Assembly (NCBI GenBank): GCA_028870995.1
Contig: JAGWOI010000002.1
Coordinates: 110,463 to 174,462, forward strand
DNA length: 64,000 nt
Origin: Candidatus Omnitrophota bacterium
GTDB taxonomy: Bacteria > Omnitrophota > Gorgyraeia > Zapsychrales > Fredricksoniimonadaceae
Reading direction: 5' to 3'
A model generated the notes under the pieces. That model was not told the origin of the DNA, ran no database searches, and saw only the letters and a list, made by a program, of their open reading frames with translations. Within the stretch, counting starts at the first letter, position 1. Every line of letters begins with the position of its first letter. The translations under genes and the position numbers were made by a program. Below, piece by piece: positions 1-62,313 of the stretch.

Positions 1-38
1 AACAAGCCTTTAATCCGGCCCCAGCCAAGGCAGATACT

Positions 39-3000
39 ATGCCCAGGCAAGGCATTGAGTACCAGCAGCCGATCCAGCCTGAGAAGTCCAGGCAGCCATT
101 TACGAACAGCCCGCAGAACCATAAAGATCCGTTTACCGGCCCGGTGACGCCTTATACGCCGCCGGCGCCTCCGGCACCGCAAACACCGCCTCCGACACCA
201 CCGACGCCGCCAGCACCGCCCACGCCGCCTCCGGCGCCGCCGAGCCCTGGCCCGACGCCGGCTGTGCCTCCTGTGCCTGATGGCAATGGTCCCGGGAATA
301 TGCCTGAGCCGACACCGTTGGCGGGTGGCGGGGGTTCAAGCAGCGGGAATGCGCCCATAGTGGCCCCGGCACCTCCTACAGCACCTATATTCTGGCAAAT
401 GGCCTTATTAGAAGAAGGGCCTAATAAGAACATTAATTTGGATAAGTCTAATATATTTGAAGGAAATAATACGGAGGGTAAAGTTTCGGCAACTTCGCCG
501 AGGACGTATATTCCGGTCCTGACTCTCTCTGCCAGCCGTTCCCTCAACGGCTCAGGCAGAGGAAATGAAGGAGACGAGGGAAATAGTAATGTAACAGAAG
601 TTGTTAGCAGTGATGAAGTTGCAGCAAATAGTTCAGTTTCTGGCAGTTTGCAGGAAAGTGGCTTAGCGCAAGCTCTGACCACTGAGAATCAAGAAGCAGA
701 AGCAAATGAAGCAGGCAGTATCAGCAGTGAAGAAGTAAGAAGTGCGGCAGTTGCAGTCAATGAAGTAAGAAGCACCGTAGTCAACAGCAGTGAAGTTGGT
801 AGTGTTGTACCTGGCAGTTCAAGCAGGAACGAAAGTGCAGCAAATGCAGTACATAATGAAATAAGCAGTACCACCGGCGTGGTGAACGCTGGTGCTATAA
901 GCGAAGCAGCAAGAAGTGCAGTAATAGAAGCAGGCAATACTCGTTCTCGTGTCCCGGCGGTTTTGGGCACGCTTATAGCAGTAATGGCTGCGTTCTCCCT
1001 AATAAGGAAACGCAACCGTGAAGATGTAAAGAAAGCGAATCTAGCCGGAAACGGCGAAGCTGAAAGAGGTGTGCGAGTTGCAGAAAGTGCGCCTAAGACA
1101 GCGGCCACCGTTGAAGGCATAAGCGCTCGAGGTGCGGAAGCTGTAGGAGGATCAGAGACCACAGCGGCTGCACAACTTCCGGCAACCTGGACGAAGTCTG
1201 AAGGCAGACTGGAAGATTCGAGTGGCGCCGTAAACGCTCAAACGACATATAGCGTCAGTTCGAGGACTGTATCTCGAAATGACGAACAGATATTACCTCA
1301 AGGTGTATGGACTGCGTCCGCGGAACGTCGCGAGCATCCGGAAGGTTCTAGAAGTCCGGAAATAAGCGATAAATTCCAGGCGCAAGAAGTGTTTGTTGAC
1401 CAAGCAAACACGACCGCCACAGCTGTTTCCACCGGCTTGCCCAAGGTGCAAAACAGAGGTGGATGGACTGCATCCTTAAAGAGGATCTTCGCCATAGGGA
1501 CCGTAACCACTGGTCTCTTCCTAGGTGCCCTTGGTGTATCTCCTGCCCTCGGGGCTGAACTGCCTGGTCCTATGCTGACCAGCGCACCTGCCCTGAGTGT
1601 GCCTTTGCGCGCGCAGAAGGCCATCGAACTATTTGGCGATCAAGGCTACCCGACTGCCGTTGTAACCAAGTCCATGGAAGGCCCGCAAGCGGCCATCTTC
1701 GGGCGGCTGGATAATGGCAAGTATTTCGAAGCCACAGTCAACAACACCAATGTCCTCGGCACCGATGAATTGCCTCCGCAAAACATCCAAGAAGCCCTCA
1801 GGGACAATCAGCTGGTTTGGACCATCGAAAGAACCTCTACGCTGCAGGCCTTCAGAGCCCTCCAAGACAATGACGTGGCCAAGGTGCGCCAATACAACAA
1901 GCAATATCAGAGACTTTTGAATAATGCCCGGATCTCCTTATTTAATCAAATCCCCAGGACCGTCATTTTCACCCTGTTTGATCCTGATACCCCGCAGGAG
2001 CGATTGCTTGATGCCAACGGAGAGATTTCACCCGTCAAGCTGGCCATGGTCAACCTGACCAACGCTGAGAAGGAGGCTGCGGCTAAACCTGCGGCAATGC
2101 AACCCACCAAGACAGCAACCGATGGATTGGTCCAGGCCGCCATCCAGAATCAGGTCATTTCCAATGCTGTGGCCAAGGCAAGTACGGACCATGTTGGGCC
2201 GCAGGTGGCACCGAGTAAAGAGCAATACAGCTCTATTAAGAAAGAATTGGATACAGAAAAAGCGTTGTTCTTAAACAAGAACATCTCCACCGATGAGACC
2301 AATGCTGTATTAGCAGAAACGATTTCCAGTAATTATGCCAAATTGGATACGGAAATGTGGGTCAATGAGAAATATGTGGCGGTTATCTATTCCTTTAAGA
2401 TGGATAAGAAGATGTTCACCGTCCTGCCCGGGGCTACATTCACCAATTATACCGGCTTCAATGATCAGGCCCTTAACTGGTTCTTAAATCAGCCTAATGT
2501 TCATACAGAAATTTATGAAAAGCCCCTGGATGCCAACCGCATTACCGACATCTCCCATATCAAAGAGTGGAAGCGTTTATGGAACGGGATGGATATTTTT
2601 GATGCCTTGAAACACAACCGGTCCTATGAAGTGCTGGTCAAATGGACCGATAAGAATGGTTCCCATGAAGGGGTGTTGAAGGCCGGCAGACGCGCGGTCG
2701 ATGCCCAAAGCACCATGGCCTTCGATAATTGGAAAGGTTCTCTCCTGTTGCAGGCCGGTCTGCAGTTGACGGATTTCAACACGTCCGCGGTTGATCAGGG
2801 CAGGGAATTGGAAGCTCAGAGAGCCAAGCTGAATACGATGTTCGGCGAGCTTAAGGACAAGACCCTGCTTCCTTCAAGCATCACCACGGTCAGCAATTAT
2901 CCGGCCACCTTCTTTAGGGTCAATCGCGATCAATCCGGCAGCATCACCAACATCACCGGGTTCTATGATAACTCCAGACTTGTGTATAAGAGGATAACCT

Positions 3001-9000: not shown

Positions 9001-12000
9001 TCTTGGAACAGGTCCCAGGAGCCAATAAGGTTCATTTGAAACAGGAGAACAATGGCACCGCTGAAACCCCCACCGCGGCCATCAATGCTTTGGAAACCCG
9101 CTTAAGCGCCATAGCAGGTCAAGATGCTGATAAGGTCCTGGAGATTTTGAGGCCCGGCAAAATCGTCGAAGGTTCACGAGAAGAGAATACTATTTATAAG
9201 ATTGATGAAAAATTGAATGCCAACAAACAATTCAGCCATATCGCCACGGTCCAGATGCAAGGTGATCCGGTTGCTGTCAGCTATACCCAGACCCAAGAGG
9301 GGGGCAAGCCTGACCTGCCGACGACCATTGTATTTGATTCCCAGAAACATGAACCGAATGTTTCCTTGTATACAGGCACCGGGGATGCCATTGCCTTGCT
9401 CAAGAGCATACATCCTAAGGAAGATACGGATGAGGTAGCTATTCTGTCCTTTGCCAGCGGTTTTTATACCCCGCGTACAGAGATTTACGAAAACGGCAAA
9501 GAGATTGTCCTGGCCTGGGGCTTTGAAGGGTATGCGGCCTCCTATAGCGGCGCTCCTGAATTGAAGAACCGCATCAATTCAGACCTTTGGCGAGCATTAA
9601 AGATACACTTTGCCGGCGACAATACGATTGAAAATGTCAAGTTTAAAGACATTAAGTCGCGTCTGGATGTCAATTTACAGCCTTTAACATATAGGAATAC
9701 GCTTGTATCCATGCCGGCTTTATATGATTATCTCAATACGGCTGATTTGCCTTGGCAGGTAAAGCCGCACGCTTCGGCCCGGATTGCTGCTACCAGCTTT
9801 TCCTTCAGGCAGGTTCCCGCCAATGTGCCTTATTATTTGGATGCTCAAGCCAAACTACCGCCGACGCAACCTGGTTTAACAACCAGCTTCGGCCTGGATG
9901 TTTCCCGATTTGCCGATACGAAATCCGTTTCCCAAATCATTCGCGCCTGGGATGCGCGGGGCTTACATAACGATGCCGCGGCCGCCTTAAGGTTTTATTG
10001 GGATGTCACCCAAGGCGGGACCAAGGATGTCAACGATTCTTATGACCGCGAGTTAGGCAGTCCCTTAATGTTCATCCCCGGCTTTAAAGCGCCCTCCTAT
10101 GCTCCGGCGAGTGCAGGTTCAGCCATTGCCGTGGCCCAGGCCGCCTGGGAGCACGCTAAGGTCAAGGGTATTCCTGCTCAAGAAGCTCTTTATGCCCGAG
10201 ATTTGACGGTCAACATCCTTAAGCATTTGGTTGGCAGCAATAATCCTGATCCCAACAAACAAAATGTATCTAAATACAGCGGGTACCGCAATATCGGCGT
10301 TTTGGCCGCACGCGCTCACGAAAAATGGGAAATTGACGGCATTGTGTTCTGGCCGGAGGCAGAGAGATTTATGACCGCTGACCAACTTAATCTTTACCTT
10401 TTGGCCGATGATATGGTCAAAGATGCCCAACTTAAGAGCTTTGCTGAAGATATACGGGCCAGGGAATCAAGGTGGATTGATACATTTATTACCAACGATG
10501 ATGTCCGCATGGGGGCCTTTGAAGTCCAGAACATTACTGATAAGAAGAACGGGACGGTTGTCTTTGCGCCGATGCCTTCAGTGACGCCTCAGGACATGCT
10601 TTTATATCTCCAGGTAGAACATACCCTCGGCCGCAGTGATGCTGAACTCCAAAAGATTTTTGACAGAACATCCAAAGCCTTCATGGTCGAGGTCAACGGG
10701 AAATGGGGGTTTGACTGGAACATCCCCAGAGGCCGAACCGATGCTATTTCAACAGAAGTCACGGCGCTGGCTTTCCGTACAGCCCAGAAAATTAATTACA
10801 CCGTACCCGCCCGAGTGCTTGCTGATCAACTGGCCAGAATTACAGCAGAAAACCAAGGCACGCTACCGGAGGCTGTAACGCCTGCCGGATACCGTACGGA
10901 TGACAAAGGGCTTATCACCGGACAAAATAATTACAGCATCATCCAAGACAAAGACGGCCGCTGGAGCCGTTCACCTGCGGCAGAAGCTTATTTGATCGAT
11001 CGTCCAGGGATTGGTCCTGTGCAACAACAACCGCAAACCATCAGCATTAAGAATGATAAGACCATTATTTTCAGTTGGAGAATTTTCAAATGGTTGGTTG
11101 GCGGATTCTTCGGTCTGGCCCTGGCCATCAGCGGAATGGGGGTCGGGATATGGCTGGTCCATCGCCGCAAGGTACGTAAAGTCCTTGAGGACAAAAAAGG
11201 TCTGTGGACAGATGAACTGACGGCCAAGGCAGCTGAGGAAGTTTATGCCCGCGATGTTCTGGGCGCCATTTCCAAACAGGCTGTACCGTTTGGCACCATC
11301 ACCTTAGGGAACAGCCCAATTGAAATCAACTTTGATACTAAATTGCGCGCCATCTATAAACTAGTCGCCGGCTACGTCCTTCGTCAGGGGATCGATATCC
11401 TATCCTGGAGAAAAGCTGTTGAAGAGATAGGCAGGACAGAACAACGAATTGAGCGGCCTTTAACCGCAACTGAAAAAGAAACCATCGTGTCCAAGCTGGC
11501 GCTGCAGGACAGTAAATACATGAGAGGATTAAATGAGTACCTGTTAATTGTTGCCTTTTTTGCCCGTCGCCTTATCAAGGACGGGGCAAAGGATGCGGGC
11601 AAAGGTAAGACCAGGACTTATGACAGCAATCACATTTGGAGCCGGTTGTTGATGTACCACGATGCCTACTATGACCGGTTCACGGCAGCCTTGGCCGATG
11701 GGGGGCAGGATAAATTTGATCTGGTCTTTAACGATATGGGCGCGCGCAAAAGAGAGGACCAGCCGGTAGATCTTAATGACAAGGCCGCTCCCATGCCGGT
11801 GAAAGGCATTCTTCTAACAGCCCTCGAACGCATGAATCTTATTCAGAACGTGATCCAGAATAATTCCCGTACGGCCAAGGAAAAAGTCATTCTTGAAGCC
11901 TTTGGGGTCAAAGGCGGCGTCAGGGACAATGGGGCTAAAAATGAGGAGGTTTATAATTATAAGAGAGTAACTTTGCCGATCGTTTTGGATGTTATTAGAT

Positions 12001-15000
12001 CCGCCATGCGTTCGCCTGCTGAAAGGGAACCTGTGAATCCGCAGGTGGACATCTTTATCAATAAATTCAATCAATTCATGAAAACAGAGAACCTCAAGCC
12101 CCGCCATCCCCGCGTATTAAGGTGGACAAAGATGCTGCCTATATTATTTGCCGGGAGTCTCTCAGGGGTCGTTAGCCTGGATGCAGCAATTGGCAGCGGG
12201 CATTTATTCACCTATTTCTTGTATAAGATGGTGCCGGCTTTGGTGGCTTCTCCCCATTTCTGGTTGGCGGCCGGTTTATTTGGCGCGGCCACGCTTTTGT
12301 GGATCATCCAGAAGAATTTAATTGAAACCTATCGCTTCAAAAATAATTACACTTCATCAATTAAGAACGGCTTGGTCTGGAACTGGAATATTTGGGAATA
12401 CAGCCGCCATATGATGCGGGCCATTGCCTCCATGATCTTCATTGGCGCCATTCTTCACCTGCCCGGCGTGGAAGGAACGGTGGAATTCTTTAAATACACC
12501 TTGGCAGTGCCGTTTGTATTTGAAATTTACGGGGCTATTTATCCGATGATGCAGACAACCATCAGCAGGATCACCCAAGTTGCGGCCGTGTTTGAAAATA
12601 CAACACAGCAACGCAGCGCTTCCGCAGCATTGAAACTATTGTTTAGAGGAAGATTCTTAGAGGCCTGGTACAACTTATCGCCTTTCACTTTTTCCTTACT
12701 GACCAGACTTAATAAACATAATTTCTTTGAATCCCGGTCCACTTCCGTTATCGGTGAATCTTTGCGGCTGACCTTCAGCCTGTCTGGTCCAAGCGGGGAT
12801 ATCTATGGTTGGATCATGTCAAAGTTCGTTTATGCGGGGATGGTTCTAGGGTTTATGGGCCTTGCATCTACCTTTATGGGCGTGCCGGTCATTGGCGGGT
12901 GGTTCTATAACAACTATTTGATCCATTCTTCCGTGCCGAAGATGATTTTTGCCATTATCGCTTATGGGACTGCCCTTATATTGGCCCGCCAGGCCATGTC
13001 ACAAATTGTTGGTTCCATCGGCAAGGTGATCAGCGCTTGGCCCTTGATGGCGGCAGCCATTGGTATAGAGATAGCCACGGTTAAAATGGTCACTCCCATG
13101 CTGTTGGGTATGGGGGTGGCTCATCCAACAGCATTGCTTATCAATGGATTGGTTACAGGCATCTTGATGGGAATGGTCTTATTGGATAAACCGTTACGTA
13201 AATGGCTTGATGATCGTGAAATCAAGAACATTAAGAAGGAATACGAAACGATCAAAGCCGAGCAAGACAGCGCGGGAGAATCTCATAGGATAGGAATCAT
13301 TTACCAGGGAGGAGACGCGCTCGGTGCCGTTAAGAGATTGGCTCAAAAACAAACCTTGGAACGTTGGGAGTACTTCAGAACGCATGATCCAAAATCCGCC
13401 AAAGCGTACTTAAAAGCATTTGGTTGGAGTTCTCAAGAAGCAACCAGATGGCTTAAGAGGCTGCATGAACGGGAAGACCATTCTAAGGTGACCTTGTGGT
13501 TCCCGGGACAAATCGAAGCTGGTGTTATTCCGGATGTTGCCGCCGTCAACGACAACAATGAAAAGGTTTATGTTGAGCAAGACGAGAAACAAAATATCCT
13601 CAATGCCTTGCAATTGAGATTGTTCCTGGTGGCCATGCTTTCCGGCGGCGGCCAGTCGCAAGATACAGGGGTGGCTTTGCTCAATATGGTCATGGCCATT
13701 AAAGAGGCCGGGATGCAGGATGAAGTGGTGCTGAACATCATGGCCAACAAGTTTAATGACGCCTCTTCGATTCCCACGGAAGAAAATTGGAAATGGGATA
13801 CGGACCTAGGGCAGAGGATTAAACTCGCACATTTAATTGACCGGTATTCCGACGTGAAGGTCAATATTATCCATGACTGGACCCCATTTGGCGCCAAGGC
13901 CACGGCCATGACCGGTATAGACCTTGTGCCGGGCATCCTTTCGGGCCAGCAGACCCGCCCTACCAATGATTACGATTTTATGCTGATCATTGATCGCAAT
14001 GCGGTGGTGAACAACATGAAACTTTTTGTCCATGATCTGCGCCGGGCCAGGGTCGATCCCAACACTGTTATCATCGTTACCAGCCGGGGCACCACCAATG
14101 TGCTCATGCCCATGGGGCAGGCTTCCATGAGCATCGAGGAGGGACATCGCGCTGCCATTGCCGGCTCCATGCTCACCGGCGGTTCCGCCGGTGAAGCTAC
14201 GGGTACAGGCTGGGGGAACATCTTGCGCAACACCTATTGGCCCACTCAAATGGCCATGATGCACAAGGATTTTCCGATCAAGCCTCTGACTTCTTCCGGA
14301 CGTCGTCAGCGTGGATTCTTGCGCAGCTTGTGGCATGGTCAATTCGGCCTTATTGGGTTTGCTCCCAATGCGGTGGGTATCAGCGAGGACATTTGGGCTG
14401 TGCAACAAGCTGCCCACAACTTAATGGCCATGGGCTATATGCCGGTGTTTAAACGCGGCAGATCCTTCTGGCATAAATTGCGTGAGACATGGAGCCAGCC
14501 TGATTGGATGGCGGCCATGCCGCGTTGGGCCGGCGGCTATATCCAGAAGATGGGGGACCTTGTCATGCAGGAAGCTTGGGACTTCGGCCCATTCTCATTG
14601 GATGCCAAGGAAATCCGCGAAAACAATGGAGACTTCTTCTTCAATGCCCGCCTGGGTCTTCTGAACGTGGTTCTTACACCGTTGGCCATTAAGTTCGGCG
14701 TGCTGCCATTCGTTGGGGTCAATGTTATCTTGTGGCTCATCGGCTTTATTTTTAACCAGGTACTTACAGTCAATGGTTTGTTGGCCCATATGGAAGGCCG
14801 CGGCTTCAATAGGCCGGCTGCCTTCTTCGGCGCTGCCATTGGGGCCGTGGCAGGCCTGATGGGTGGGGCAACAATGTCAGGGATATCCATAGCTCCTGTT
14901 ACTGCCTTTGCAGGGTTTATTATCGGCGGATTTGTCACGGCCTTTGCTCAATGGATCAAGACCCGCGGACGTGATTTCTTATTGTTTGCTCCGCTGCTTG

Positions 15001-30000: not shown

Positions 30001-33000
30001 ATTTCCAGAGCCAGCGTGAAGCCATGGCCAAACTTTCCCTCTCCCAGGTGCTGGCGCATGAAATTTTCAAGAAGGAAATCCAGGCCGGGAGCATACGATT
30101 CAATGACCAAGACCAGGGAGAGATGGGCTTTACAAAGGATATACCCGTTACCGAAAGACCGCGTAAAGCATTCTCTTGGGGCAGGCCATGGCAGGAGCCT
30201 GAAGGACGCCAGATGGATCTGGGCCTGGATATTAAATCTTTTACAGGGTTCTTGCTTCTTATGGCCGCAAGCCTTTCGTTGACCGGCTGCAGCAGTCATC
30301 ACGCAGCAGCCGCTGTGGCCGACCTTGCGGCGGGCGTCATGATGGCCGTCGCAGGGACCCTGTTTTCCATGACGGTCTTGCTGCGTCCCCAATCCCGCTT
30401 TATGAAATGGCTGCTGACCGTATCAACCACACGTTGGCACGACCGGTTTAAGATGAGGTTGTTTGAATGGATTTCCCTGGGCCTGCCTTCCATCAAAAAA
30501 CATTTGCAGATCAACATCGTTTTGCCTGGCTCCGCGTCTTTAAGAGCAAACCATGCTGTTTCGCTGCCGCCGGACGTGGCCATGAAAACGCTGGCCATGA
30601 AAGAATCCCAGGAAAATATTTTGCGGATACAACAAAAAGGCTGGGCCCTGAATAATTTTACGGGAGTGCTCCATCCGCAGAATCCTCAAATGCAGCGGGG
30701 ATTGGAATCAGCGACAGCTGGAGATCTGCAGGGCGAGGGGAATCAATACATGCCCGGGACGGCCGAGGCACCGGTGGTTTTGACCTTTGACGGGAAAAAG
30801 ATATGGCAACGCCTGCCATTAAACGGACGTTCAGAGCTTGCACCGGGCAGCGTTGTTTATGCCGTTTGGCATCACCCGAAAGACCCGAATCAATACATGG
30901 AAGGCGTTTTGTCCTTGCAAGATGACAGCCGGAATAAGGTCATCCCCAGGGTACATGAGGGCAGTTGGGAAATCCTCACCGCCCATGACCACCAGGACTA
31001 TGTGAGACTGCGCCCCAACTTGCTGGCCGTGGTTCCGGTCACCGACGTCTACCATAGACAGAGACAGGCGGTGGGTGCTTTTCAAGGAAGCCACGGAGTA
31101 TTTTTGTTGGGGCCTGGCCTGGATCGCCGGGAAGCACTGGAGCGCATGACCAGGGGGCTGGTCCTGGCGGGAATCCTCGGTGAGAGCGGCAAGCTGATTG
31201 TCAGCAGCCGCCGGCAAAGCGACAACACCGACATATCCACTATCCAGGAGGCGGCACTGGCCTGTGCCGGCACCGTAAGGCAAAAGGAAATTTTCACTAT
31301 TGGCCGTAACGGCGACACCATATCCGGAAACGGCGCCGGGCCCATTAAAGGCCTGTGGGTTTGGTTCAACAATCCGCATGCGCGTAAGATTTATTTCGAA
31401 GGCAAGAGAATCGATTCGTTGAGAATTTGCCTGTTCGGCTTTCCGGGCGAACCCCTGGCCCACCTGGTTTCCGGCGCCTACAGCCAGTTTTCCGTTACAG
31501 GGCTTATCGGCCTCTCGGATGCCGACGGTTCCTTCAGCGAACTGGCGGCAACTCAGGCCGGAAGGCTTTCTTCCGGACTTTGCCAGGTTCTGGCCCAACG
31601 GCCCATTCCTTTAAAACCCGAAGGGTTAATAAACCTGTTGGAACGCTACAAGCAGGCGGTCGATTATTATGCCTCCCAAGGCGGACGGTTGGGCGACGCC
31701 TTAAAGCAGGCGGATGCCGTTATCGCGGGAGGGAAACAGGGATCCTTCAGCCGCGATTACGCGGAGAAATTCGCCGGGTACATTGTTGTCGAGTCATCGC
31801 CCGGCGCTATCACGGCGGAGGCCAGGGACCATTTGCTGGCCAAGGGCATTTTTGTATTGGGTAACTCTGTCGTTGAGATCGGGCCGTCCCTGGCAGCCAA
31901 AACAGGGTATATCAGCGCCAAAAAAGGGACAGCGGCTCCCCCCGAAATGCTTTTGCAGGACAGGATGTTCTTTGAAATGATGGTCCGGCTCATGAACGAC
32001 CTTGAAGCTGCCGCCAGGAAGTTTGATAAGACACCGACGGAATTTGGGCAAGCCTATCAGGACATCGTTCTTCAGGGGGAAGAGTCTTTTAATAAGACAA
32101 TAACCCAGTTGAGCGGGGCTTCGGTCGCCGCCTTGCGGTCGCTGGCTTTGGTCAAAGGCGATGCTCCGCTATGGAATAACCGGACCTACGAGGCGCTTTT
32201 GGCCCTGCGCCGGTGGGACGTGCTCGATCAGTCCATGCAAACCCTGGCTGCCGTCCGCCAGAGGATAAAGATCCTGGTCGGGGAGCAGCGGGAAGGCATA
32301 GTGTTTGTTGATCTGGCCGCGGCCCGGGAAGATGAAGCCAAGATCGAAAAAAGGATCCCTGAAGAAAAGAAAGATTATGAAAAAGACCTTAATGGACTGC
32401 CTCCTTCCCTGCGGTCAGGGTTTGAGACGTTCCTGGCCGGGATCAAGGGGACACCGGAATTAAGGGTCTTGAAGCGTCTGGCCTACAATATTTTTATCGT
32501 GAACCTGCCGTTTAACCTGGCGTTCCACTTCGCTGTTTATGACGAGGCCTACCGCGGCAGGCTGTTGTCCTACCGTTCTCAAGATCAATGGATGGAACTT
32601 TTAATGCGCTGTTCTCAGGAAACCAAACCGTTGGATACCATTAATGCCATCTTTGCCCTCTCTCACCTGGAGCTTCCGCCGGCCATAAGGGGAGAGATCG
32701 TTTCCATGATGGACCAGATGTTCTCCTTGAGCCTGAGGGCTGATCCGGTCAGCAAAAGCCTTTCGACCAGCGCCTTAAAGACATTAAGCGTTTCCCAAGC
32801 CATCGTGGTGACCAACAAGGAAAGGACAGAGCGCCTCCTTAACGCGGTTTGCATGATGGCTCTGGAAAGGATGAACATTACCTCGGCGGGTGACACGCTC
32901 CTCAATCAGATGGCCAATTACAGCCAAATGGATGTGACCGTGCAGAAGTGGTTTGAATTTGCGTTGAGCCAGTATAGTCCGCCCTGGCGGGAGCTTTATG

Positions 33001-36000
33001 ATGAGGCGTACGAAAAGATCGAGCGCTGGCGCGGCTATTTCAGGATGCAGGGCTGGCTTGACGATGAAGGGTTCCATCCTGAGAAGGCGGCGCATGGGAG
33101 CAAAATACAGTCAGATTTTGTCACGGCGGCCGGCGATTTCCGTTCCTGTGCGGTCTTAAGCGAGATGTGGGCCCGGACCCTGGAAGAGCACGCCGGAACT
33201 CCCGAATGCCCGGAAAGGACGCGAAAACACCTGTTGGAATCGGCCCAGGCCCTCAAGAGGCAAAAGCAGCGGCACTATGAATTTGCCGCACGCCTGGCCG
33301 ATGCTTCACGCCTGGAAGGGACCGTGCTGGCCATGTTTCGCCCCAAAGAGGCCTGGCCGCTTTGGATGAAGGCCGGGGACATGCGCCAGGCGCGTCTGGC
33401 CCTCTCTTCCATGATTTCCTGGCGCGAGGCAGGCAAACGTTGTGCCAAACAAGAGGTGCCGGACGGCCAGGCCCCTTGTCTGGTCAACCTGGCGCAATAT
33501 GTCACAAGGCCCAACGTGCTTACGCATACTTTTATGGGCATCTTCATGACCAACAGCCTGACACAGAACCATCAAACTGATATGGCCGAGGTTTACGATA
33601 CATCTTTTGATTTGGGAAGCACGCTGTCACGGTATGTCAATGAGCACCGCGAATTCATGGAAGGGGTCATCACGCGCGAATCGTTGAATAAGCTCGGCGC
33701 AGAGGCGTTCCTGCAATTGACCGACGGGCAGAATGGCCTTCTAAAGGCGGTTTCACCCGGCCTGCTGCGTTTCCGCAAGGAAATGAACCAGGTCTCTCTG
33801 GGACAAATGCGTGAGGTCTTTGGCGGCCAATATGAAGACGTCCTGGCAGCTTTGAACCAAAAGCAGGCGTCCTTGACCCTGGAAGAAAAGACACCTGTCG
33901 CCCGGGCCATTATCGCGGACTTTGCCGCCTCTTCGCACCGGCTGGCCCTGCTGAACAACAGCATTTATCTTGAGCACGAACGCCTGTATGTGTGGGTCCT
34001 TCTTAGTGTTTTCGGGCTCTATTTTACCGATGAGAGGATGGACCGTTTTGTGCGCAACATGGTCGTCAGCGGCCAAGGCGGGGGCATTTCGGGGCAGGAC
34101 ATGCAGGCCCATGTGGCTGCCGTCGAAAAAACGATGGACCTGGAGCTGGGCAGGAGCCAGGCCTTTATGACGGCCGGGACCGAAGCCATGAGGCTGTGGC
34201 TCTCGAGCAAGGTCCATGAAATCAAACAGGGATTCAGCTGCGGGATGGGGACGGTTGAGGGCAACAGCATGAGCAAGCAAGCTGAACACCTGACCCGCCA
34301 GGCACTAAGCGACGGGAAATTGGTAAGATTCAATGAATTCAAGCCTGCGACTCCGGGGCCTTATGACCCCCTCGCTGCCGCACTTCTGGAAGACGAGCGG
34401 GTGCGGCTATTTATCCCCGCTGTGAGCCTTGATGGCCGCGGCCCGCCGTATCTTTGGTTTAAATCAAAAGAACATTTCCTGGTTTCCTGTGTCCTGGACG
34501 GCCATATCATAGTTCCTGTAGGCCTTCTGGATAATCCGCATTTACTGGAAGTTTTGCGTTTTGAGATGGCCAATCTTATTTCCGGTGAAGAGACCGTCCG
34601 GGAATCTGCGCTGTTGGCAAGCAAGGTTTTATCATCCGCGGCCGGTGATTTCACCGGCAGGACTGATTTGGACCGGCGGATCATCCAGCGTGTCCGGCAG
34701 TTGGAACGAAATTTTCGGCGTCAAAAGGCGGCTGACGCCAATACGCCAACCATCTTGAACTATATTTTCTCGCGGACCCGTTATAAGAAGGGCCGTTTTG
34801 TCGTCCATCCTCTTGAAAAATTAAAGGGACATACCCGCACGCACCGCCTCCGAGGTTCTGATTCAAGCCCGAGGCCGTACATGCCGGGCGAGGCGATTGA
34901 GTTTCTGGAAGAGGAGATCATTGCGCGTCTTCAGATTTTGGGCATGGAGGCGGACATCGTGGTGAATGCCAATCCGGCGGCCGAAGGCCATTTTATGATC
35001 ATGCCCCGGCGCGGCGCGCATTTGCCCCAGTATCTTGACAGCCCCGAATACTTGAAGGCGGCTTTAACTATTTTAAGATCTTCACGGCGTAAAAATTTAA
35101 AGATCACGTTCGGCAGTAAGTACACGGCTTCCATCGACCACCTGCATTTTAATGCTTTTTATTATGGCGGGGCCGGGTTGGGGCTGGGTTTATTCTGGCC
35201 TTTGTTTAACGCGGGCAAGCTTCCTGCGGAGAAGGCGGCCCGGCAGGTTTTATTTGAACGCCGGACAGTGACAGTCATGGGCCTGGAAGATTATCCGGTC
35301 AAGGGTCTTGTCTTTTCATCGCAGGACGACGCTGCCCTGACCGAGGAGATATTTAACTATATTCAAATCCTGAACCGTCGCAAGATCGCCTATAACCTGT
35401 TGATGACGAAAAGCGGCACCTATGTATTTGTCATGAACGGCAACCGGGTCAACCGGTTCCACATGAAGATCACCTCCATTGCCGTGGCCGGAGAATATAC
35501 GATGCGGTCCCATCACAGGCGAGGCCTGATGGAGAAGGACATTGCCGGGGATTTAATGGGCTTTTCCGTTGACGGCAAAACGTTCGATGAAACGGCCGAA
35601 GAGCTGGCCCATGGACCCCAAGACCGCACGTTTAAAAGACGCGTTGATTTGAAATTCCTGGTCACTGAAGAAGAGGCCCAAAGGTTCCGCGGCGTTATTT
35701 TAGCCCAGGGAATGTTGCTGGATGAATACTGTGCAAGGGGGCCTTATTTTATTGACAGTGTTTATTGGGACAGCCCTGAGTGGCGGCTTTGGCATGAGGA
35801 AGACGGAGGGAACGCGGGTGTTCCCAAGTTGAGGATGCGTTCCTATGATTCAAGGCATGTTTTATTTTTTGAGATCAACGAACGCAGCCAGGCGAACGTT
35901 AAAACAAAACAACGCACGCCGGTGACACCCGCGGGGGCGCGGGCTGTCTTTAACGGCGAACTGCCGGGCGATGATGATATTTTGGCCGAAGACAAGGCCC

Positions 36001-39000
36001 AGGGACGGGCGGCGCTGGGAGTGTTTGTGCAATTGGTTAAAGAGAAGGCTCTTGAGCCCAGGGTCCGGATTTCTTATCTGAGGGAGGCCTATTTATCGGC
36101 GGATGATGCCTTAAGGATAAGTTTTGACCGCCGGGTGAGCGCTGCCTTTGAAAAAGAACCTTTGGCTGCTGCGGAGCCGGGAACCCTGGTGGACATCTAC
36201 AGCCCCAAGGTCGTGGTGGAGATTAAATTTAAAGAGGAGCTTCCAGAGTGGGTTTCTTCGCAAATAACACGGCCGTTAAATTTAGCGCCCCAAGAAGTGC
36301 ATAAATTTTTGGACGCGGTGAGAAAATTACGCGCAGATCCTGCGCCGCTCGCCCTGCTCCTTCCCACTGCAGAGAATAAGAGCGATCTGGCTGTCCTGCT
36401 GTCCTTAAAGGATTCAAGGGCCCTGCTCGAGTTTTTATACGAGAAAGCCCGTCAAGAGAGGGACATCATCATGAGGGAAGGGTCATCGGGCCTTGCCCTG
36501 CGCCACACGGAGGCTTTCGACGGAAAAAAATGGGTTGTGACCACACCCGCGCAGCGGCTGGCGATGATGTATGAAATGGACAGGTGGAACGATCCTGTGG
36601 AGGACCACGTCCAATGGCAGATGAATGTCTTTGGCCCCATTCTTGATGAATGGGCGGAAGGCAAATTCGGCAGCCGCGGAGAAGGAAATTTTGCCGAACT
36701 CATGACCCTGGGAACAAGATGGACTCCGGAGATCAGCGGTCAAATGATAAGGCTGCAGGAGCTTTTGGAGAAGGCCGTAGAGGCGGATGAAGCGCAGAGA
36801 CGGAGATTCGAAGATTTGCTGGCCTATGTGCAATTAGAACGCAAACAAGGGGACGGCTTCCTCGATCTCGATGATCCCGCAGCCAGATTCGATGAAGAGC
36901 TGGATATTTCCGTGGCGGCGGACAGGGTTTTAGAAAGTTTTCTGGCCTCTGTCCAAAACCCTCACGCCATCGGAGAGGTTGTGGACATATATGATGAAAT
37001 TGATTTCATGAACCACCCGTCCTTGCGCGCCTATATCCAAAAACTTGTCAGTGGCGCCTTACAATTGACCCGGCGGCGTCCTGGGCGAGCCCCAATACAT
37101 CCGTCTGACAGCAAAGACCATGCCGCCAATGGTGCGACCCGAACACAAGTTGTCAAAGAATTGATGCGGTTGAGGGGGCTGCCGCCGGGCTGGAGGTGGA
37201 ACAAAATACCTTCAGGCGGCAAGGAAATCGACAAGGGCGTCAAGCTGTACCTGCAGTTGACCGGGAAAAAACGATTGGCCCCTTCCTGTGAAGTCATTTT
37301 TCTGCGCGCGCCTCCCCAAAGCCGTTACAGAGCATTTTGGCTGGACGAATTCCCCGGGCATATCGATATTTATTTAAGGCAGGACGCCACCGGCTGGGAC
37401 GTGGCCCACGAATTACTGGCGGCCTTTGAGAACACCACCCACTCACAAAATGAATTCTTCTGCAACGATGGCCATTCGATGGCATATCGGCGGCTTGTCT
37501 TTGATATCCTTCGTCCGTATGTATCCCGCTGTCCCGTTGATCACAGTGCCGCAACAATTGAACTCCAACTCAATACACTCAAGATGCAGGCCAAGGCTTT
37601 GCTGGCGCATCGTGAAAATCCCGGCAACGAGCACTGGAGCAAATTTTTACTGGCGGTGACCCAATATCTCAGGACTGATCCATATGATTTTGTTCTCTAT
37701 CTGATGCAGAAAGATCCCCAGCAGGCATTGTCGGGGAAAGCCGGGGATACGCCCAAGGTATTTTTGGCAAGAGTCCTGGCAAATGTCGCTGACAGGCTTG
37801 CTGTTTTGATCGTCCGTTACCGGGACCTGTCAAACCGCTTTCTCTATGGCAGCCTCAAAGCGGAAGAGAAAGAACACCTTTTCAGCCTGGCCGCAAACAT
37901 CCTTGATTATGCACCGCCAACGGAAGAGGAAACTCCTGTCCCAGAGGCCTTTCAGGTCCCATCCAAGGCACAGATTCAGGGGGCGGCTGTAAAGCTAGAA
38001 AAAGAAATATGGGATCTGATGGCCAGGCCGTTGAATGAAAAGGCTTACGGCAGGATGGTCCTCCTTTATCAGCAATCGGAAGAATTGAGAAAGCCGTTGA
38101 AAATGCCGCCGGAGTCTAGGGCGCTGCCTGCCTGGGTCAACATTCGAAAATTGCTAGAGGAAGACGATATCATCCCGGCCCTTGACCTCATGCTTTTGCC
38201 CGAGGCAGCTTTAAGTAAAACCAAAACGCAAAAAATGAAGGCGGTATGGGATGAGGCGGCTGAAAGAGTTATTGCTAAGTCGGATAGCCTGACCAAGGCC
38301 AACCGTAAGAAGGAAGCGCGCGAGATTTTACAAAAGGCAGAACGACTGTTGGTTTCCACCGAAGTTTATCCGGTTTACCAAAATCTTGCCCAAGAACTGC
38401 TTGCTCTCATCAATCAAAAACATCCCAGCGCCTTGAAGGCGCAGAGACTGCTGGAGGAGCACGCCGCTTATTGGTCAGATAACCGTATTGCCAAACAATT
38501 CCTCGAGGCCATGGCCGCCGAACGGCCGTATGGGAACATGGATAAGCTGCCCAAGCAATTGGCCCATATGTCGGGCTACCTGGTGGGGGAATTGGAAGGA
38601 TTAATTGCAGAATATGAGAAACTTTACCGCCCCTTGAGCATGACGCCGGAAAGCCAGAAGCAGTTCAAGATTTGGCAGGCCGAACACCCGGATCCGGGCG
38701 ACGAAGAATTGTGGGAAGAGCTGTACGGCCTGGCCCTGGTGGAAGAAAAAGATCTGCCTTACTCAAGCCGCGATCATTATGAGGTGCTTGAAAAAGTCTT
38801 TGAAACGCATCCCAAGGTTTTGAACGCTCAAACAGGTCAATCAGAGGATTTCGACGAGCAAAAGCACGGCAGGGACCTGGGGGGCGGTATTTATTTGCGG
38901 CTCATGAAGTACAGCATGGCCCATGATAGCGTTCTGCGCCTACTGATGCAGGGAACAAGGGGTCCTGCTTGTTCTCCCGACATCTCGCTGTTCCTTTGGT

Positions 39001-42000
39001 ATGCCCATGAAAGGGGCCTTATAGCCGCCGCTGAAGCCCATGCCGATATTAATTTTGAGGCGATTAAAGGCCGCAACGGATACCTGTCCATGACGACGGG
39101 TGAAGATAAGCAGTGGAAAGCCGGCCGCCCTGCGGTGCCGGATGTGTTGGGAATGTTGTACGACGAACAGGCGCCAACCATCGAGGCGCTTTTGAACAGC
39201 GGGTCGGCATACTTAAGGAGCATCGCCCTGGAGTTTATCGACGAGGCGGTGGTGAAGGAAGAAACTTCCTATGTTAGAGAAGACGGCCGCCGCCGCAGCC
39301 GGCTGTGGGTCTTGTTGAAACACCGCAAGGTGCTGGTTTACGACAACGCCCGCTGGAGGTGGTCCTTTATCCTTTGGGCGCCGCATCCTTTTAAAACCAT
39401 CCGTCAATTATGGCACCAGGCCACCAATAGCCTTAAGGCCTACGGACGGGGCTACCGTTTGAGTCAGGACCATTATCCGGGCCGTCTTGATCTGGCCATC
39501 AAGAGCGGTTTGAGCAAGGCCGTCGAAGGTCATTGGGAATTCGACTGCTCCGCAGTTAAGCGCAGCCGGGTCGATGGCCTCAGCCAGGTTCCCGATGTGC
39601 TGGGCCTGCCTTATGAGGCCCGCCGGCTCCCTGGGGGAAGGGACCTTTTGGCAAAGCAGCCCCTGAATGCCCTCTCGACGATGTTTATTTCGCAGGTCAA
39701 GGTTTTTACGATCATGGGTAAGCCGGGCGGCGGCAAGGGAGAATTGTCCAGGTGGATCATTAAACAGCTCAATGAATTGCTGCCCGAAGGGCGCGGGTAT
39801 GAAACCTTTGTCCTGGGGGATTATTTCAGGGGCATCAAGAGGGTCAAGATGGACCCCGCTTCAGCCAGTGCCCAAGACCTGAAAAAGTATGGGCCCTTTG
39901 TTTCGCTGGTGACTGAAGAGGACCTGGCCCGGATGAAGGAGCGCCAATTGATCAGCGACCAGACGGTCATTAACATCATCACGGCCGTCTTGGAAACAGA
40001 GCCCTATAAGAACGCCTTTGGGTTGTTCCTCGACGGGTTCCCTAGGAATTTGGAGCAGGCCAGGCTTCCTTTGGAGAAAATTACCTGGCGGGGCGCGCCC
40101 CTGGCCATTGATCTATATGTTTATCTGGACATACCTAATGAAAAGAACGCTGTTTTCTATGAACGGGCCAGCCATCGAAAGGCCCAGGCGGTCCTCAACA
40201 ACGAAAAGCCGCGTGAAGATGACGAGCCGGAAACAGTGGCCAAAGGGTTAAAGACCTTTGATGAGGAAACCCGTCCGGGTATCGAGTATGTCTTGACCCA
40301 ATTTGCAGGAAAATCATTTAAGATGCAGGGCACGACGGAAGGGATGCGTGAGGACAGCATTGCCATGGACAGGGTCAATTTCATGGCCGGCTGGGCAGAA
40401 CATTTGGAGCGCCACCACAAGCGCCCCGTTATTCTGGCCCTGCCGTTCTTGCCGGCCATACAACAGGTCATGGACCAGGGATTAAGGACGTCAGATGCCC
40501 GCAGGAATTGGGACGCCATCCGGAGGGCAACGAACCTGGAATTGCGATGGGCTTTTAAGCGGGGCTCTCCCATGCCGGAAGAGGAGTTTATCAAGGCGCA
40601 TCAGGAAGTATTTGATGTGGGCCTTCGCACATGGCGCAAACCCCGTCAGGAGGAGCTTGAGGCGATCAGGCTGATGTACAGGGAAGCTTGCCGTACCTAC
40701 GACAATCATTATTGGGCCTATTTGGGTGACATCGCGCCCGGGCCGGGCTTGGTCGGCTATTTAAGGGAAAAAGGCGGGGAAGCGCATAAGCTGGCGCTTG
40801 TCGAAGCAGGTAAAATATTTTTTAAATTTCAAGCCGAGGCTTGGAAAAACCGGCAGGGCATTTTGGCGCTGCCGCCCATCCCAACGGCGATGAGTGAGGA
40901 ATTCCGGCCGGCAGGGTTAAACTTGTTGGCCCAGCATGCGCAGCTCAAGCCGCAGGCGTTCACTCAAGACTTCATTCATTCGATTCCCTCAAAGCACTGG
41001 CAGCTCTTGGACATTTATTATGGCCTTCATCAGGCGCCTGTCGCTGAGTTAAGAACTATCCATAAAAAATTACGCTCCAAAGGAATGGCTTACGGCAATT
41101 TCCGCTGGATCGCCATGATGCGCCGGTGGGTGGTCAAGAATTTGAAGAAAGTGCGGATCGGCCGTCAACAGCTGGCCTCCTTGCTTAAAACGGATGTTAA
41201 GAAAATCACCGCTGACATGATCGAGGGTTTGCCTGAAACCCATAAGACGGTCATCCGTATTAATTTTGGTATAGGCGTGCACCGGCCTTTGCAAAAAAAT
41301 TTGCTTCAAGAGGTCAGAAAGGCCCTGAAGAACGAAAAACTGACCATTGAGCAGCTGGATACCTTGCGTCAGGAAGCCGTTGAGCGTCTTGACTGGGCTG
41401 TTAGATACGGGCTTCATCAGAAATTTTATAAAAATGCGCCTGCACGGCTGCAAAGGAAAGCTCCGGTCAATAACAGCGGCCTGGAAGTACTGGCCTACGA
41501 TTTAAATATATCCGCAGTGCCATTGACCGAAGAAGTTTTACAGCAGCGGTTGAATATGATCGCTCCCAGGGCCAGGGAAGCGGTGGTCCAATATTATTGT
41601 TTGGACGGCCGGCAGCGGACATTGATGCAGATAAGCCGTCATATGGCATCTAAACGGTTCCGGGACCTGCGCAGCAATCCGTCGGCACTGACGATTCCGA
41701 ATCTGAGCCTTTTGGTCAAAAATGCGGTGAACCACATGAGGCGTTATAAGGGAGGGTTTGACTGGCTGACCCAGGAACTTAGGCTTACTCCTGAAAGGGT
41801 GCGGTCCAATTGGATGAAACTTGCCATCCATGAGGCGGCGGCATTGATTCTGCATTACGGGATCGGCACACCGCGGTTGGCGGATGATGCAGCCATAGCC
41901 GCTTTCTTTGAAAGAAATAAAATATCCGGCCTGCAGCGCACGGTCAGCACGCATGAAATAAGGCACTTGCGCATCAAGGCCAAAGAACGGCTGACCGGTG

Positions 42001-43248: not shown

Positions 43249-43614
43249 ATGAACGAACGCAGGCAATTGCCGCGGTGGGAGATCAAAAAAAGCTCCCGGG
43301 TATGGATGCCGCAGGTGCAAAGCTTCAGTCAAGGGTTTATCGAGGATATGCATTTAAAAGGGATGTGCATATCTTTTGAAAAGCCGGTTTTCCAGCAGGA
43401 AACGGTTAATATTTATTTTACGATCGGTGAAGATAATTTGGATTTGATCAAGGTGGAAGCCCAGGTTCCCTGGACAAAGCAGGAAGCGGACAGGTGTGTT
43501 TACGGGCTGTTTTTTAGCCAGATCCGGGACGATTACAAGGACAGGATCTCCGAATACATTAATACCAATTGTTTTGACCAAATCAGGAATAATTGGTGGC
43601 AGCAGAGCGCCTAG
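43249..43614 (+). CDS. Small PilZ-domain-like protein (121 aa)
   Basis: RBS gaaaggaaggag, 6 nt before the ATG. N-terminal 'RRQLPR' (RxxxR) and 'EDMHLKGMCISF' (degenerate DxSxxG) resemble the two c-di-GMP-binding PilZ motifs. The match is partial. Confidence 0.4.
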   Translation: MNERRQLPRWEIKKSSRVWMPQVQSFSQGFIEDMHLKGMCISFEKPVFQQETVNIYFTIGEDNLDLIKVEAQVPWTKQEADRCVYGLFFSQIRDDYKDRISEYINTNCFDQIRNNWWQQSA

Positions 43615-45368: not shown

Positions 45369-45512
45369 AATCTCCAATCCTTGAGTCTTTGGAATTCTCG
45401 GACCGTTTCTAGCAAAGCCTTAGAGCCACAAAAGGTTACAATAGAACTGGTCCAAAACGTATTAATAATGAAAGGGACACTTCTGTCATAAGTCTTTATT
45501 TTTCTAGGGGCA

Positions 45513-48032: not shown

Positions 48033-48059
48033 CAAGGGAGATTTATAGCATAAAAAGAG

Positions 48060-50900: not shown

Positions 50901-51779
50901 TTGTGTCCTTCGTCTTCCTCGAGTATATTGCCATTTATGCTTAAAATCTTTCGCAGCATTTTGATCGGCCTCCTGGTCGTCGCCTGGGTGGCCCCCGGGG
51001 AAGGTTTGGCTTATCACCGCCTGGCGTTCCGCCGCCACGGCCCGTACCATCTGACCGCCAATACGGCGCTTTTGTGGGACCCCGCCCGCAATCAAAATTA
51101 CTTCGCGCAAGGCGCGGATCGGGAGGTTTATCCCGCCTCCACGACCAAGGTGTTGACCGCGATCCTTGTTTTAGAGAATCTTCCTTTGGACAAGCAAGTG
51201 ACGGTGCCGGCGCAGGCGGCTTTGATGCCGCAGACAAAGCTTGGTTTGAGGCCCGGCGAAGTCTGGCGGGTCAGGGATTTGCTTTACGGCATGCTGCTTC
51301 ATTCGGCCAACGACGCCGCCGTGACCCTGGCCGTGGCCGTGGCCGGGTCCCAGGAAAAATTCGTCGATATGATGAATGCCCGCGCCAGGCAGCTGGGGGC
51401 CCTGCACAGCCATTTCGCCAATCCTGACGGCTTGCCGTCCACCGGCCCGCAATTCACCACAGCGGCCGACATGAGCCGGATATTCCTCCAGGCCCTCAAG
51501 AATGATTTTTTCCGGCAAGCCCTCACCTATAAGTACATGACCATCTCTTCCGTTGCAGGCCGGCGTCTTTTTCTGAAATCGTTCAACAAGACCTTGTTTT
51601 TTAGCTGGAGACGGCAGGTGTTCGGTAAAACCGGGTATACTAGAGAGGCCCGGTATTGTTTTGTCGGCTATATCCCAAGGGGGAAGGAAGACATGCTGGT
51701 TATAGCGGTTTATGGATGCCGCCGCCGCTGGACGGACATGAAGTATATCATTGAACATTACGGCCATATTATGTTATGA
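50901..51779 (+). CDS. D-alanyl-D-alanine carboxypeptidase (peptidase S11, DacA-like)
   Basis: SxxK 'ASTTKVLTA', SxN 'HSANDAA', and a signal/TM 'ILIGLLVVAWVAPG'. Likely start is the ATG at 50938 (MLKIFRS...). Confidence 0.8.
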   Translation: MCPSSSSSILPFMLKIFRSILIGLLVVAWVAPGEGLAYHRLAFRRHGPYHLTANTALLWDPARNQNYFAQGADREVYPASTTKVLTAILVLENLPLDKQVTVPAQAALMPQTKLGLRPGEVWRVRDLLYGMLLHSANDAAVTLAVAVAGSQEKFVDMMNARARQLGALHSHFANPDGLPSTGPQFTTAADMSRIFLQALKNDFFRQALTYKYMTISSVAGRRLFLKSFNKTLFFSWRRQVFGKTGYTREARYCFVGYIPRGKEDMLVIAVYGCRRRWTDMKYIIEHYGHIML

Positions 51780-51807
51780 TTTGAATATTCACTCACGGAG
51801 GGTTCTT

Positions 51808-60093: not shown

Positions 60094-62313
<2,220 letters not shown>

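Follow-up and report, generated by a model that had tools for sequence, protein, structure and literature searches.

A repeat-free 14,397-residue Omnitrophota protein with a core of predicted cellulose-synthase-like fold and a tail of putative phosphoryl-transfer modules

The 64,000-nucleotide (nt) stretch of a Candidatus Omnitrophota contig analyzed here (the window; positions 110,463 to 174,462 of the forward strand of JAGWOI010000002.1, assembly GCA_028870995.1) is dominated by a single open reading frame (ORF) of 14,397 codons at its 5' edge. It raises the question of whether a frame of this length is one real gene and, if so, what kind of protein it specifies. Giant proteins of the Planctomycetes-Verrucomicrobia-Chlamydiae (PVC) lineages have been catalogued by the thousands, yet they are functionally opaque; in one catalogue, 137 of 916 lack any database match. 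Mosaic, membrane-anchored giants of these lineages are already known, and what is new in the present case is the identification of the core, its fusion to a unique phosphotransfer tail, and a complete lack of repeats. With moderate confidence, we read the ORF as one genuine giant gene encoding a mosaic protein of the cytoplasmic membrane, in which an outer domain, a synthase-like core, and a phosphoryl-transfer tail are joined in one chain.

The ORF contains a single stop, its own terminal TAG, when translated independently of the ORF listing. Over the same span, the other two forward frames hold 623 and 808 stops and the three reverse frames 279, 482, and 797; about 660 would be expected from base composition over 14,397 codons (log10 P = -293.5), and no other frame across the region is open for more than 416 codons at a stretch. 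The neighboring genes terminate with TAG, TAA, and TGA; all three stops are thus in use, and the long frame cannot be put down to stop-codon reassignment. When codon usage from eight housekeeping genes of the flank served to score 29 tiles of 1.5 kb, the ORF's own frame was preferred in every one (-3.88 to -4.09 nats/codon, versus -4.36 to -4.72 out of frame), with weak discrimination only in the Pro-rich first tile. These results confirm the ORF as a genuine, native coding sequence, as the initial annotation of this DNA had maintained when it called the 43.2-kb frame nonrandom. Its suspicion about the 5' end also stands: nt 3-38 upstream of the ATG are open in frame (QAFNPAPAKADT-M...), and hence translation may begin outside the window. 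Since the window ends on this 5' side, the ordinary compact genes that the initial annotation described for both flanks can be seen only on the 3' side. Self-BLASTP found no internal repeats, and the only Tandem Repeats Finder signal in the ORF comes from a Pro-rich stretch (nt 148-241). This repeat-free chain sets the giant protein apart from the repetitive adhesin-type giants.

An exhaustive HMMER search with residues 4201-5400 against 1.84 billion representatives recovered a rare family: 160 clusters, of which 132 fall at E<1e-10 and 90 at E<1e-30, with 30-45% identity and nearly all of them in proteins of 3,000-7,700 amino acids (aa) or fragments of such. Word-indexed searches with 1,500- and 2,300-aa queries came back empty even for the VTC and adenylate kinase (ADK) modules described below, and their 8,000-candidate prefilter saturates when queries are long; their silence is not evidence of orphan status. 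Local BLASTP of the whole protein against 150 relatives listed of the 160 clusters placed the family homology at aa ~1960-2500 and ~3070-5420. The same 150 relatives had no match to aa 1-1950 and, apart from one marginal match, no real similarity to aa 5431-14397. The N-terminal 2,000 aa found no relative in 185,579 GTDB species genomes, and neither the N-terminal 1,500 aa nor aa 6001-8000 had a useful match in JGI metagenome contigs. Relatives of 4.2-4.6 thousand amino acids (kaa) that start with Met stop at the equivalent of giant aa ~5404-5420. One of them, P0008, aligns through its residues 2087-4357 of 4357 with giant aa 3064-5404 and is a complete gene with further genes after it in its contig. 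These comparisons resolve the giant protein into a family core flanked by an N-terminus and a C-terminal extension of ~9 kaa, both lineage-specific. Organism-named members are almost all from Omnitrophota (P0002, P0003, P0025, P0027, P0035, and P0045) or Verrucomicrobiota (P0005, P0007, and P0020), with one 2.7-kb contig (P0022) labelled Chloroflexota; the closest named relatives of the core, at 39-45% identity, are proteins from Omnitrophota metagenome-assembled genomes (MAGs), namely, P0002, P0003, and P0025. Complete members have no Pfam match at all; we found no literature on the family, and its core is absent from both of the giant-protein preprints discussed below.

The nature of this core is suggested by its predicted structure. 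An AlphaFold2 model of aa 4251-5420, built from a 51-sequence alignment (mean predicted local distance difference test score [pLDDT] 75.6, predicted template modeling score 0.80), comprises a helical bundle, then a six-strand alpha/beta domain, then a second, larger helical bundle. Two independent structural comparisons agree on what the model resembles. In a Foldseek search of the PDB, the bacterial cellulose synthase BcsA came first (E=1.1e-5, probability 1.0), and the top ~25 matches are all membrane synthases of glycosyltransferase (GT) family 2 (GT2): BcsA, hyaluronan synthase, cyclic beta-1,2-glucan synthase, plant CesA, and chitin synthase. BcsA was also the best match by a clear margin in a comparison that aligned 482 residues, far more than the GT-A domain alone, indicating that transmembrane (TM) and interface helices superpose too. 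Identity in the structural alignments is ~10%. The model thus points to a membrane-embedded, probably processive glycosyltransferase that is not a GT2 member by sequence, and a Pfam-dark core with this BcsA-like predicted fold, common to very large proteins of several PVC lineages, is what the analysis adds. In this way, one "dark" block of the very large Omnitrophota and Verrucomicrobiota proteins gains a specific, testable predicted fold, that of a cellulose-synthase-like membrane glycosyltransferase. The polytopic membrane block reported in the initial annotation is accordingly present, although it is no orphan, as it belongs to a conserved family with this predicted fold.

Conservation within the core was assessed on an alignment of 34 family sequences, with residues kept in at least 90% of them counted as motifs. 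These occur in the same order, and on matching secondary-structure elements, as the D, DxD, (T)ED, and Q(R/Q)xRW motifs of the GT2 synthases. From the motif layout of BcsA and the secondary structure of the model, D4652-R-N is the putative DxD position, GISED the putative TED/finger-helix position, and PRW the putative QxxRW. RxTT, EEGHR, GTGWGN, and WxKxRE are further motifs specific to the family. Like the processive GT2 synthases (BcsA, CesA/CslF6, hyaluronan synthase, chitin synthase, and Cgs), the core is predicted to place a cytoplasmic GT-A domain between two TM bundles, and it keeps acidic and RW residues where the TED and QxxRW motifs would lie; its joining with other large domains in a single chain has a parallel in Cgs (~2.8 kaa). 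In contrast to those enzymes, the core has no detectable sequence similarity to them, reads DRN at the DxD position, and lacks PilZ, and the giant protein carries ~3.7 kaa before the core and ~9 kaa after it. Two other identities were considered. A GT48/FKS-like assignment, prompted by a "SEDIW" motif, had no profile support; the fold search led to GT2-type enzymes, with FKS absent among the listed matches. The name "MFS transporter," which NCBI gives to P0002 and P0043 (MBF0490321.1 and MFH1282160.1), looks unwarranted: it had no Pfam or NCBIfam support in the core or in the members scanned, and here too the fold search pointed to a GT2-type synthase.

The region preceding the core begins with the Pro-rich, low-complexity N-terminus and TM helix that had been recognized earlier, to which a second helix can be added. 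TM1 (aa 304-322) is followed by RKRNRED, and TM2 (aa 483-501) is preceded by SLKR; by the positive-inside rule, the ~160-aa loop between them (aa 323-482) would be cytoplasmic. The chain would then leave the cytoplasm for ~3.2 kaa and return through TM3, which is followed by HRRKVRK. No cysteine occurs in this predicted outer region, and its sequence matched nothing in Pfam, NCBIfam, or the PDB. The claim that about 3,000 aa here belong to no recognizable family thus holds for the Pfam and NCBIfam models, but not for aa ~1960-2500 and ~3070-3685, which are conserved in the core family. A profile of an outer-domain segment (seven sequences) found nothing in the PDB; an (alpha/alpha)6 barrel at aa ~3250-3650 was a guess, which this seven-sequence profile did not bear out. 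In all, the protein has ~20 or more hydrophobic segments. Because the TM helices come in even numbers on both sides of the GT-like domain, this domain and the ATP- and PEP (phosphoenolpyruvate)-using tail would both be cytoplasmic, a placement that makes biochemical sense. Cysteine is absent throughout aa 1-6173 (nt 39-18560), first appears at aa 6174, and occurs 36 times in the tail; core-family members have 0-0.6% Cys versus 1.7% in the flanking genes. An extracytoplasmic location alone is insufficient to account for this absence, as aa 1-6173 include TM and cytoplasmic GT-like parts.

Pfam scans covered the whole protein, both with long tiles and with tiles of 1,000 aa at thresholds as loose as E<=1, and NCBIfam agreed with no additions. 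This domain-by-domain search, which the initial annotation had proposed, yielded five recognizable modules, all in the C-terminal 60% of the protein, and its picture of a long tail of enzyme modules is thereby substantiated; ~90% of the protein has no Pfam or NCBIfam family. The first module resembles Enzyme I of the PEP-dependent phosphotransferase system (PTS) and retains RTSH with the phospho-His (aa 6941-6944), GLRRSE, MFPMIE, SMLETP, FFSVGTNDL, and SICGD, the equivalent of Cys502. Its best database relatives, at 24-30% identity, are ordinary Enzyme I and PtsP proteins, none of them part of a giant protein. It thus shares the phospho-His RTSH, the PEP/Mg2+-site motifs, and the catalytic Cys with Enzyme I and PtsP (EI-Ntr), but it differs from PTS Enzyme I in scoring below the equivalog level, in lying inside a 14-kaa chain, and in having no HPr or EII partner detected in the ORF (phmmer with Escherichia coli HPr found no HPr domain in the protein). 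By sequence it is Enzyme I-like and not a canonical PtsI. A tentative nucleoside diphosphate kinase (NDK)-like segment has NRIHSADS at the catalytic-His position. The HAD-IIB module has DKDKT as motif I and GDEFLEDGND as motif IV, and its best solved relative is an alpha-phosphoglucomutase (4bnd). The VTC module, which belongs to the catalytic domain family of Vtc4-type polyphosphate polymerases, had no PDB match by sequence. The ADK module carries the P-loop GKPGGGKG, LDGFPRN, and REDDEPETV. Since their motifs are intact, the four modules that can be aligned to solved structures (Enzyme I-like, NDK-like, HAD-IIB, and ADK) look catalytically competent, and, judging from their family assignments, all five belong to phosphoryl-transfer chemistry. 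The fusion is unusual: Enzyme I-like, VTC, ADK, and HAD modules are not known to share a chain with a synthase, and the two giant-protein preprints describe no such combination.

The tails of the core's relatives differ, with HPr plus DUF218, DUF218 plus radical SAM, or HEAT repeats. P0041 (2,061 aa) has a PTS HPr domain at residues 1249-1329 (E=2.4e-17, GLH motif) and DUF218 in its tail; together with the Enzyme I-like module of the giant protein, this suggests repeated recruitment of PTS-type phosphorelay or signaling parts as recurring partners of the family. Split forms also occur. At locus L085, a 2,489-aa outer-domain ORF (2572-10041) extends into the 5' end of the gene for a 1,658-aa core (10001-14977), and at L083 (98-2710, minus strand) and L086 (7011-9869, minus strand), a ~900-aa module is encoded divergently upstream, its two copies being 39% identical. 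On our reading of the sequences, this module seems to be the one fused N-terminally in the 4.3-kaa members. The split forms argue for separable modules that work together, and the design pattern that they suggest is one of a conserved membrane core combined with an outer domain and a cytoplasmic enzyme tail that both vary. Glycoside hydrolase (GH) genes, GH5 "Cellulase" at L081 and GH42-like (1,397 aa) at L086, lie directly downstream and convergent in two of the four relatives examined. In this small sample, they recall the endoglucanases carried by cellulose-synthase operons.

These parts can be arranged into a provisional mechanism. The low-complexity N-terminus and its two TM helices would lead into the Cys-free ~3.2-kaa domain, probably outside the cytoplasm. 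The module of TM, GT-A, and TM parts at aa ~3686-5420, with the predicted fold of the cellulose, hyaluronan, chitin, and cyclic-glucan synthases, would polymerize a glycan from nucleotide sugar at the cytoplasmic face and export it through a TM channel of its own; the large outer domain would receive the glycan and hold or process it at the cell surface. The lineage-unique ~9-kaa tail, probably cytoplasmic, would tether phosphoryl-transfer enzymes beside the synthase: ADK, and possibly NDK, for nucleotide turnover; VTC for a polyphosphate-type energy store; HAD-IIB for sugar-phosphate phosphatase- or mutase-like chemistry; and the Enzyme I-like module, probably, for PEP sensing or a PEP-dependent phosphorelay. 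Comparable control through regulatory domains attached to the enzyme exists in other synthases. The fusion bears on a possible coupling of the energy status of the cell to polymer export. A bolder proposal, which we put forward only tentatively and regard as rather doubtful, is that the core typifies an unrecognized, PVC-restricted family of processive polysaccharide synthases with a BcsA-like fold and no GT2 sequence similarity. The giant protein would then be a self-contained "polymer factory," with PEP, polyphosphate, and adenylate/NDP-kinase phosphate turnover in its tail by the active site and a 3-kaa outer domain receiving the product. If this were true, part of the dark repertoire of giants in Omnitrophota, Verrucomicrobiota, and kindred lineages would be surface-glycan machinery and not adhesins or lytic weapons.

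Several observations weigh against the synthase-centered reading. Neither the core nor 50 relatives have a Pfam GT match at E<=0.01 to 1, the core matches no NCBIfam GT model, and a profile of the family retrieved no synthase or other structure when compared with solved structures; the glycosyltransferase assignment is drawn from a predicted structure. The motif at the DxD position is noncanonical, with its second Asp replaced by Asn. No nucleotide-sugar pyrophosphorylase, PilZ domain, or further partner typical of classical synthases is seen in the ORF or its visible flank. Relatives and a model are both lacking for about 75% of the chain, chiefly its first 1,950 aa and the inter-module tail, and a single-sequence AlphaFold2 prediction of aa 1601-2500 reached a pLDDT of only 31. 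Among the tail modules, the Enzyme I-like one scores 84 bits versus a TIGR01417 equivalog cut-off of 341.7, ADK falls under its NCBIfam cut-off, and the NDK-like match is weak. Hydrophobic segments at aa ~8202, 9073, and 10096 would put some ATP-using modules outside the cytoplasm if they were real TM helices, although they may be buried helices. The first ~18.4 kb of the ORF also differ in composition from the remainder, as detailed below.

The D-R-N sequence and the lack of any matching GT2 sequence model would also fit a core that is a nonprocessive membrane glycosyltransferase of the DPMS, ArnC, GtrB, or PcManGT kind, with a lipid carrier or a protein as acceptor, or else a catalytically dead scaffold or sensor. 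We consider this unlikely, as BcsA leads the structural matches by a clear margin with its 482 aligned residues and ~12 TM helices surround the GT-like domain; against a dead core, conservation is at least 90% for the residues at the putative TED and QxxRW positions, which characterize processive enzymes.

Omnitrophota giants have been linked in the literature to predation, and an attack or adhesion protein akin to the Archaeovorins, whose outer domain would bind another cell in predation or episymbiosis and degrade or remodel the partner's envelope, has therefore to be weighed too. The core family is indeed common to very large proteins of that phylum, the outer domain is both large (~3.2 kaa) and Cys-free, and GH genes adjoin two relatives. 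A weak Ntox50 toxin-domain hint at aa 1758-1825 (nt 5310-5513) points the same way, although it falls below threshold (E=0.001, 20.2 bits versus a cut-off of 22.2) and is probably a chance match. West-Roberts et al. 2023 (10.1101/2023.11.21.568195) reported proteins of up to 85,804 aa and placed those of at least 10 kaa in Planctomycetota, Verrucomicrobiota, and other PVC phyla. Like their Archaeovorin- and Dockerin-type giants, the present protein is very long, membrane-associated, and mosaic, with a domain-free N-terminal region, and those giants come from Omnitrophota, as do the closest named relatives of its core. The resemblance to Omnitrophota giants drawn in the initial annotation is upheld to this extent, but the hallmark domains are missing: at Pfam E<=1 and in NCBIfam, the giant protein showed neither SecA_DEAD nor SecA preprotein-binding domains, and no peptidase domain (C39, S8, or any other), GT1 or GT5, GH, methyltransferase, NUDIX, dockerin, TSP3, lectin, or adhesin-repeat domain, and its only GT-like element is the Pfam-dark core. 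It also differs from the Archaeovorins in length (14.4 kaa versus the >30 kaa applied in that study) and in having mutL, not pilZ genes, as its downstream neighbor. Together with the lack of repeats of any kind, the absence of secretion-system genes in the visible 3' flank, and a conserved part whose predicted fold is synthase-like and not degradative, this makes an attack or adhesion role improbable in our view.

Nielsen and Lui 2026 (10.64898/2026.06.07.730766) counted 5,761 proteins of at least 10 kaa in in-house and NCBI Omnitrophota sets, the longest of 147,155 aa, and in light of these numbers the earlier claim that the present product is among the largest bacterial proteins cannot be upheld. 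They defined a "multi-enzyme metabolic" class (Class 1) and found 80% of sequence clusters to be singletons. The giant protein, with 14,397 aa, PEP-utilizers_C, Hydrolase_3, VTC, and ADK once each, a weak NDK, TM helices, and no repeats, fits this class, which is descriptive and not a homology family. Class 1 giants share with it HAD hydrolases, several unrepeated enzyme families, TM helices, and a mostly singleton status. On the other hand, the set of Enzyme I-like, VTC, ADK, and NDK-like modules is absent from the main text of that paper, the synthase-like core is not described there, and five modules in 14.4 kaa contrast with 21-50 distinct Pfam families in nine multi-enzyme examples of at least 80 kaa.

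The composition of the ORF bears on whether the single frame might be an assembly artefact, in which a synthase-family gene was joined in frame to a cytoplasmic gene of another organism or indels hide stops. GC content at third codon positions is 0.562 up to codon ~6140 and 0.641 beyond (2*deltaLL = 92), and the tetranucleotide signature of nt 39-18400 correlates with the rest at only 0.79-0.82, whereas the C-terminal half correlates with the flanking genome at 0.91-0.94. The close relatives stop at the equivalent of aa ~5420, and the phylogenetic signals diverge: the closest named relatives of the core are from Omnitrophota, but in a scan of GTDB genomes with the flanking MutS, the closest among the matches listed (57% identity; others listed at <=44%, from mixed phyla, with no Omnitrophota among those listed) lies on contig CAZAXH010000018.1 (locus L001), labelled "uncultured Planctomycetales bacterium." Against this, a purely synonymous codon model reduces the shift to about +-0.035 nats/codon, spread gradually over codons ~5750-6750 (nt ~17,250-20,300) with no step, the flanking genes resembling the tail. 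Amino-acid bias along the protein (T/N/D/K-rich outside, L/A/E/R-rich inside) can account for much of the signature difference; every tile favors the ORF's frame under the neighbors' codon usage, there is no repeat at which an assembler could cross over, and other family members bear long, unrelated C-terminal extensions too. L001 itself has mutS, mutL (50% identical), and then a convergent ORF of at least 2,717 aa (14396-22546, minus strand) that runs off the end of the locus, so a large ORF stands at the same place by mutL. This ORF encodes a protein-kinase module and, ~900 aa before its C-terminus, an ADK/AAA_33 P-loop kinase module, with three exact 139-aa repeats at the end; it is similar to the giant ORF in design, but its sequence resembles neither that ORF nor the core-family set. 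An artefact is thus decidedly unlikely; we read the compositional transition as differing amino-acid composition, to which an ancient fusion between an acquired core and a native gene may have contributed, and the locus by mutL may be a hot spot of giant genes that evolve rapidly. There is likewise only a slim chance that the ORF gives rise to several separate proteins by internal initiation or proteolysis and never to one chain, for, although modules are separate genes at L085, L083, and L086 and processing has been proposed for Omnitrophota giants (10.1101/2023.11.21.568195), no C39, S8, or other peptidase domain was detected and 14,397 codons have been kept stop-free, as a single translated frame predicts.

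Table 1. Features of the giant ORF, its immediate neighbors, and the GH genes adjoining two relatives. Nucleotide positions are those of the window unless another locus is named; residues are those of the giant protein.
Feature	Nucleotides	Residues	Strand	Basis or remark
Giant ORF	39..43232	1-14397	+	14,397 codons and TAG stop, ATG start (ORF listing, own translation)
Pro-rich low-complexity stretch	147..338	~37-100	+	Only tandem-repeat signal of the ORF
TM1, loop, TM2	948..1541		+	Hydropathy and flanking charges
Predicted extracytoplasmic region	1542..11093	502-3685 (~3.2 kaa)	+	Predicted topology
TM3	11094..11156	3686-3706	+	Chain would return to cytoplasm
Stretch before core		3707-4266	+	Predicted cytoplasmic
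Synthase-like core	12789..16298	4251-5420	+	TM bundle, alpha/beta GT-A-like domain, TM bundle; modeled segment
First core TM cluster		4267-4382	+	Four TM helices
GT-A-like domain, predicted cytoplasmic	13281..14588	~4415-4850	+	Model, family-conserved motifs
D4652-R-N	13986-14003		+	C-terminal end of beta-strand in model
RxTT (SRGTTN)	14082-14099		+	Family-specific motif
EEGHR	14133-14150		+	Family-specific motif
GTGWGN	14202-14219		+	Family-specific motif
GISED	14376-14396	4780-84	+	N-terminus of helix in model
PRW	14517-14537	4828-30	+	In helix following GISED helix
Second core TM cluster		4866-5263	+	About eight TM helices
C-terminal extension	16299..43229	5421-14397 (~9 kaa)	+	Lineage-specific; composition like flanking genome
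Further TM pairs		up to ~6180	+	Hydropathy
Tail		~6180-14064	+	Predicted cytoplasmic
PTS Enzyme I-like module	20514..22001	6826-7321	+	PEP-utilizers_C 7.5e-27; TIGR01417 7.9e-24; aligns with Enzyme I residues ~75-570
NDK-like segment (weak, tentative)	26040..26243	8668-8735	+	Pfam E=0.022; PDB E=0.0023; NCBIfam E=0.0016
HAD-IIB (Cof-type) hydrolase	26322..27098	8762-9020	+	TIGR01484, 52.4 bits versus cut-off of 41.8
VTC	35640..36323	11868-12095	+	PF09359 E=2e-27, model positions 2-232 of 235
Adenylate kinase	39708..40307	~13224-13423	+	ADK 5.4e-13
C-terminal hydrophobic cluster	42231..43097	~14065-14353	+	TM hairpin, very hydrophobic TM at 14213-14231, Trp-rich segment
mutL	43611-45377		-	Convergent with giant ORF
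mutS	45513-48035		-	Convergent with giant ORF
GH5 "Cellulase" gene	L081 13357-15225		-	Adjoins family member
GH42-like gene	L086 20301-24494		-	Adjoins family member; 1,397 aa

Scans of the 64-kb window found no tRNA genes or Rfam families. Beyond the two mismatch-repair genes, the 3' flank encodes a TrmB-like methyltransferase, an S11 D-Ala-D-Ala carboxypeptidase, a DsbA-like protein, a GT2-PMT_2 fusion, glmS, a TP_methylase-family (tetrapyrrole methylase) protein, and a collagen-repeat ORF; mutS and glmS were both seen downstream, where they had been reported. The DsbA-like thioredoxin protein (51751-52620) is fused to an N-terminal DUF948-like segment, and the adjacent 780-aa fusion (52701-55043) combines a GT2 domain with a PMT_2 membrane domain. 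The collagen-repeat ORF (60094-62304, minus strand; 736 aa) consists mostly of collagen-type G-X-Y repeats (Pfam Collagen E=3.4e-58) and is overlapped by ORFs at 60075-61472; its 9-, 18-, 27-, and 135-nt tandem arrays (nt 60110-61359) leave several frames open on both strands.

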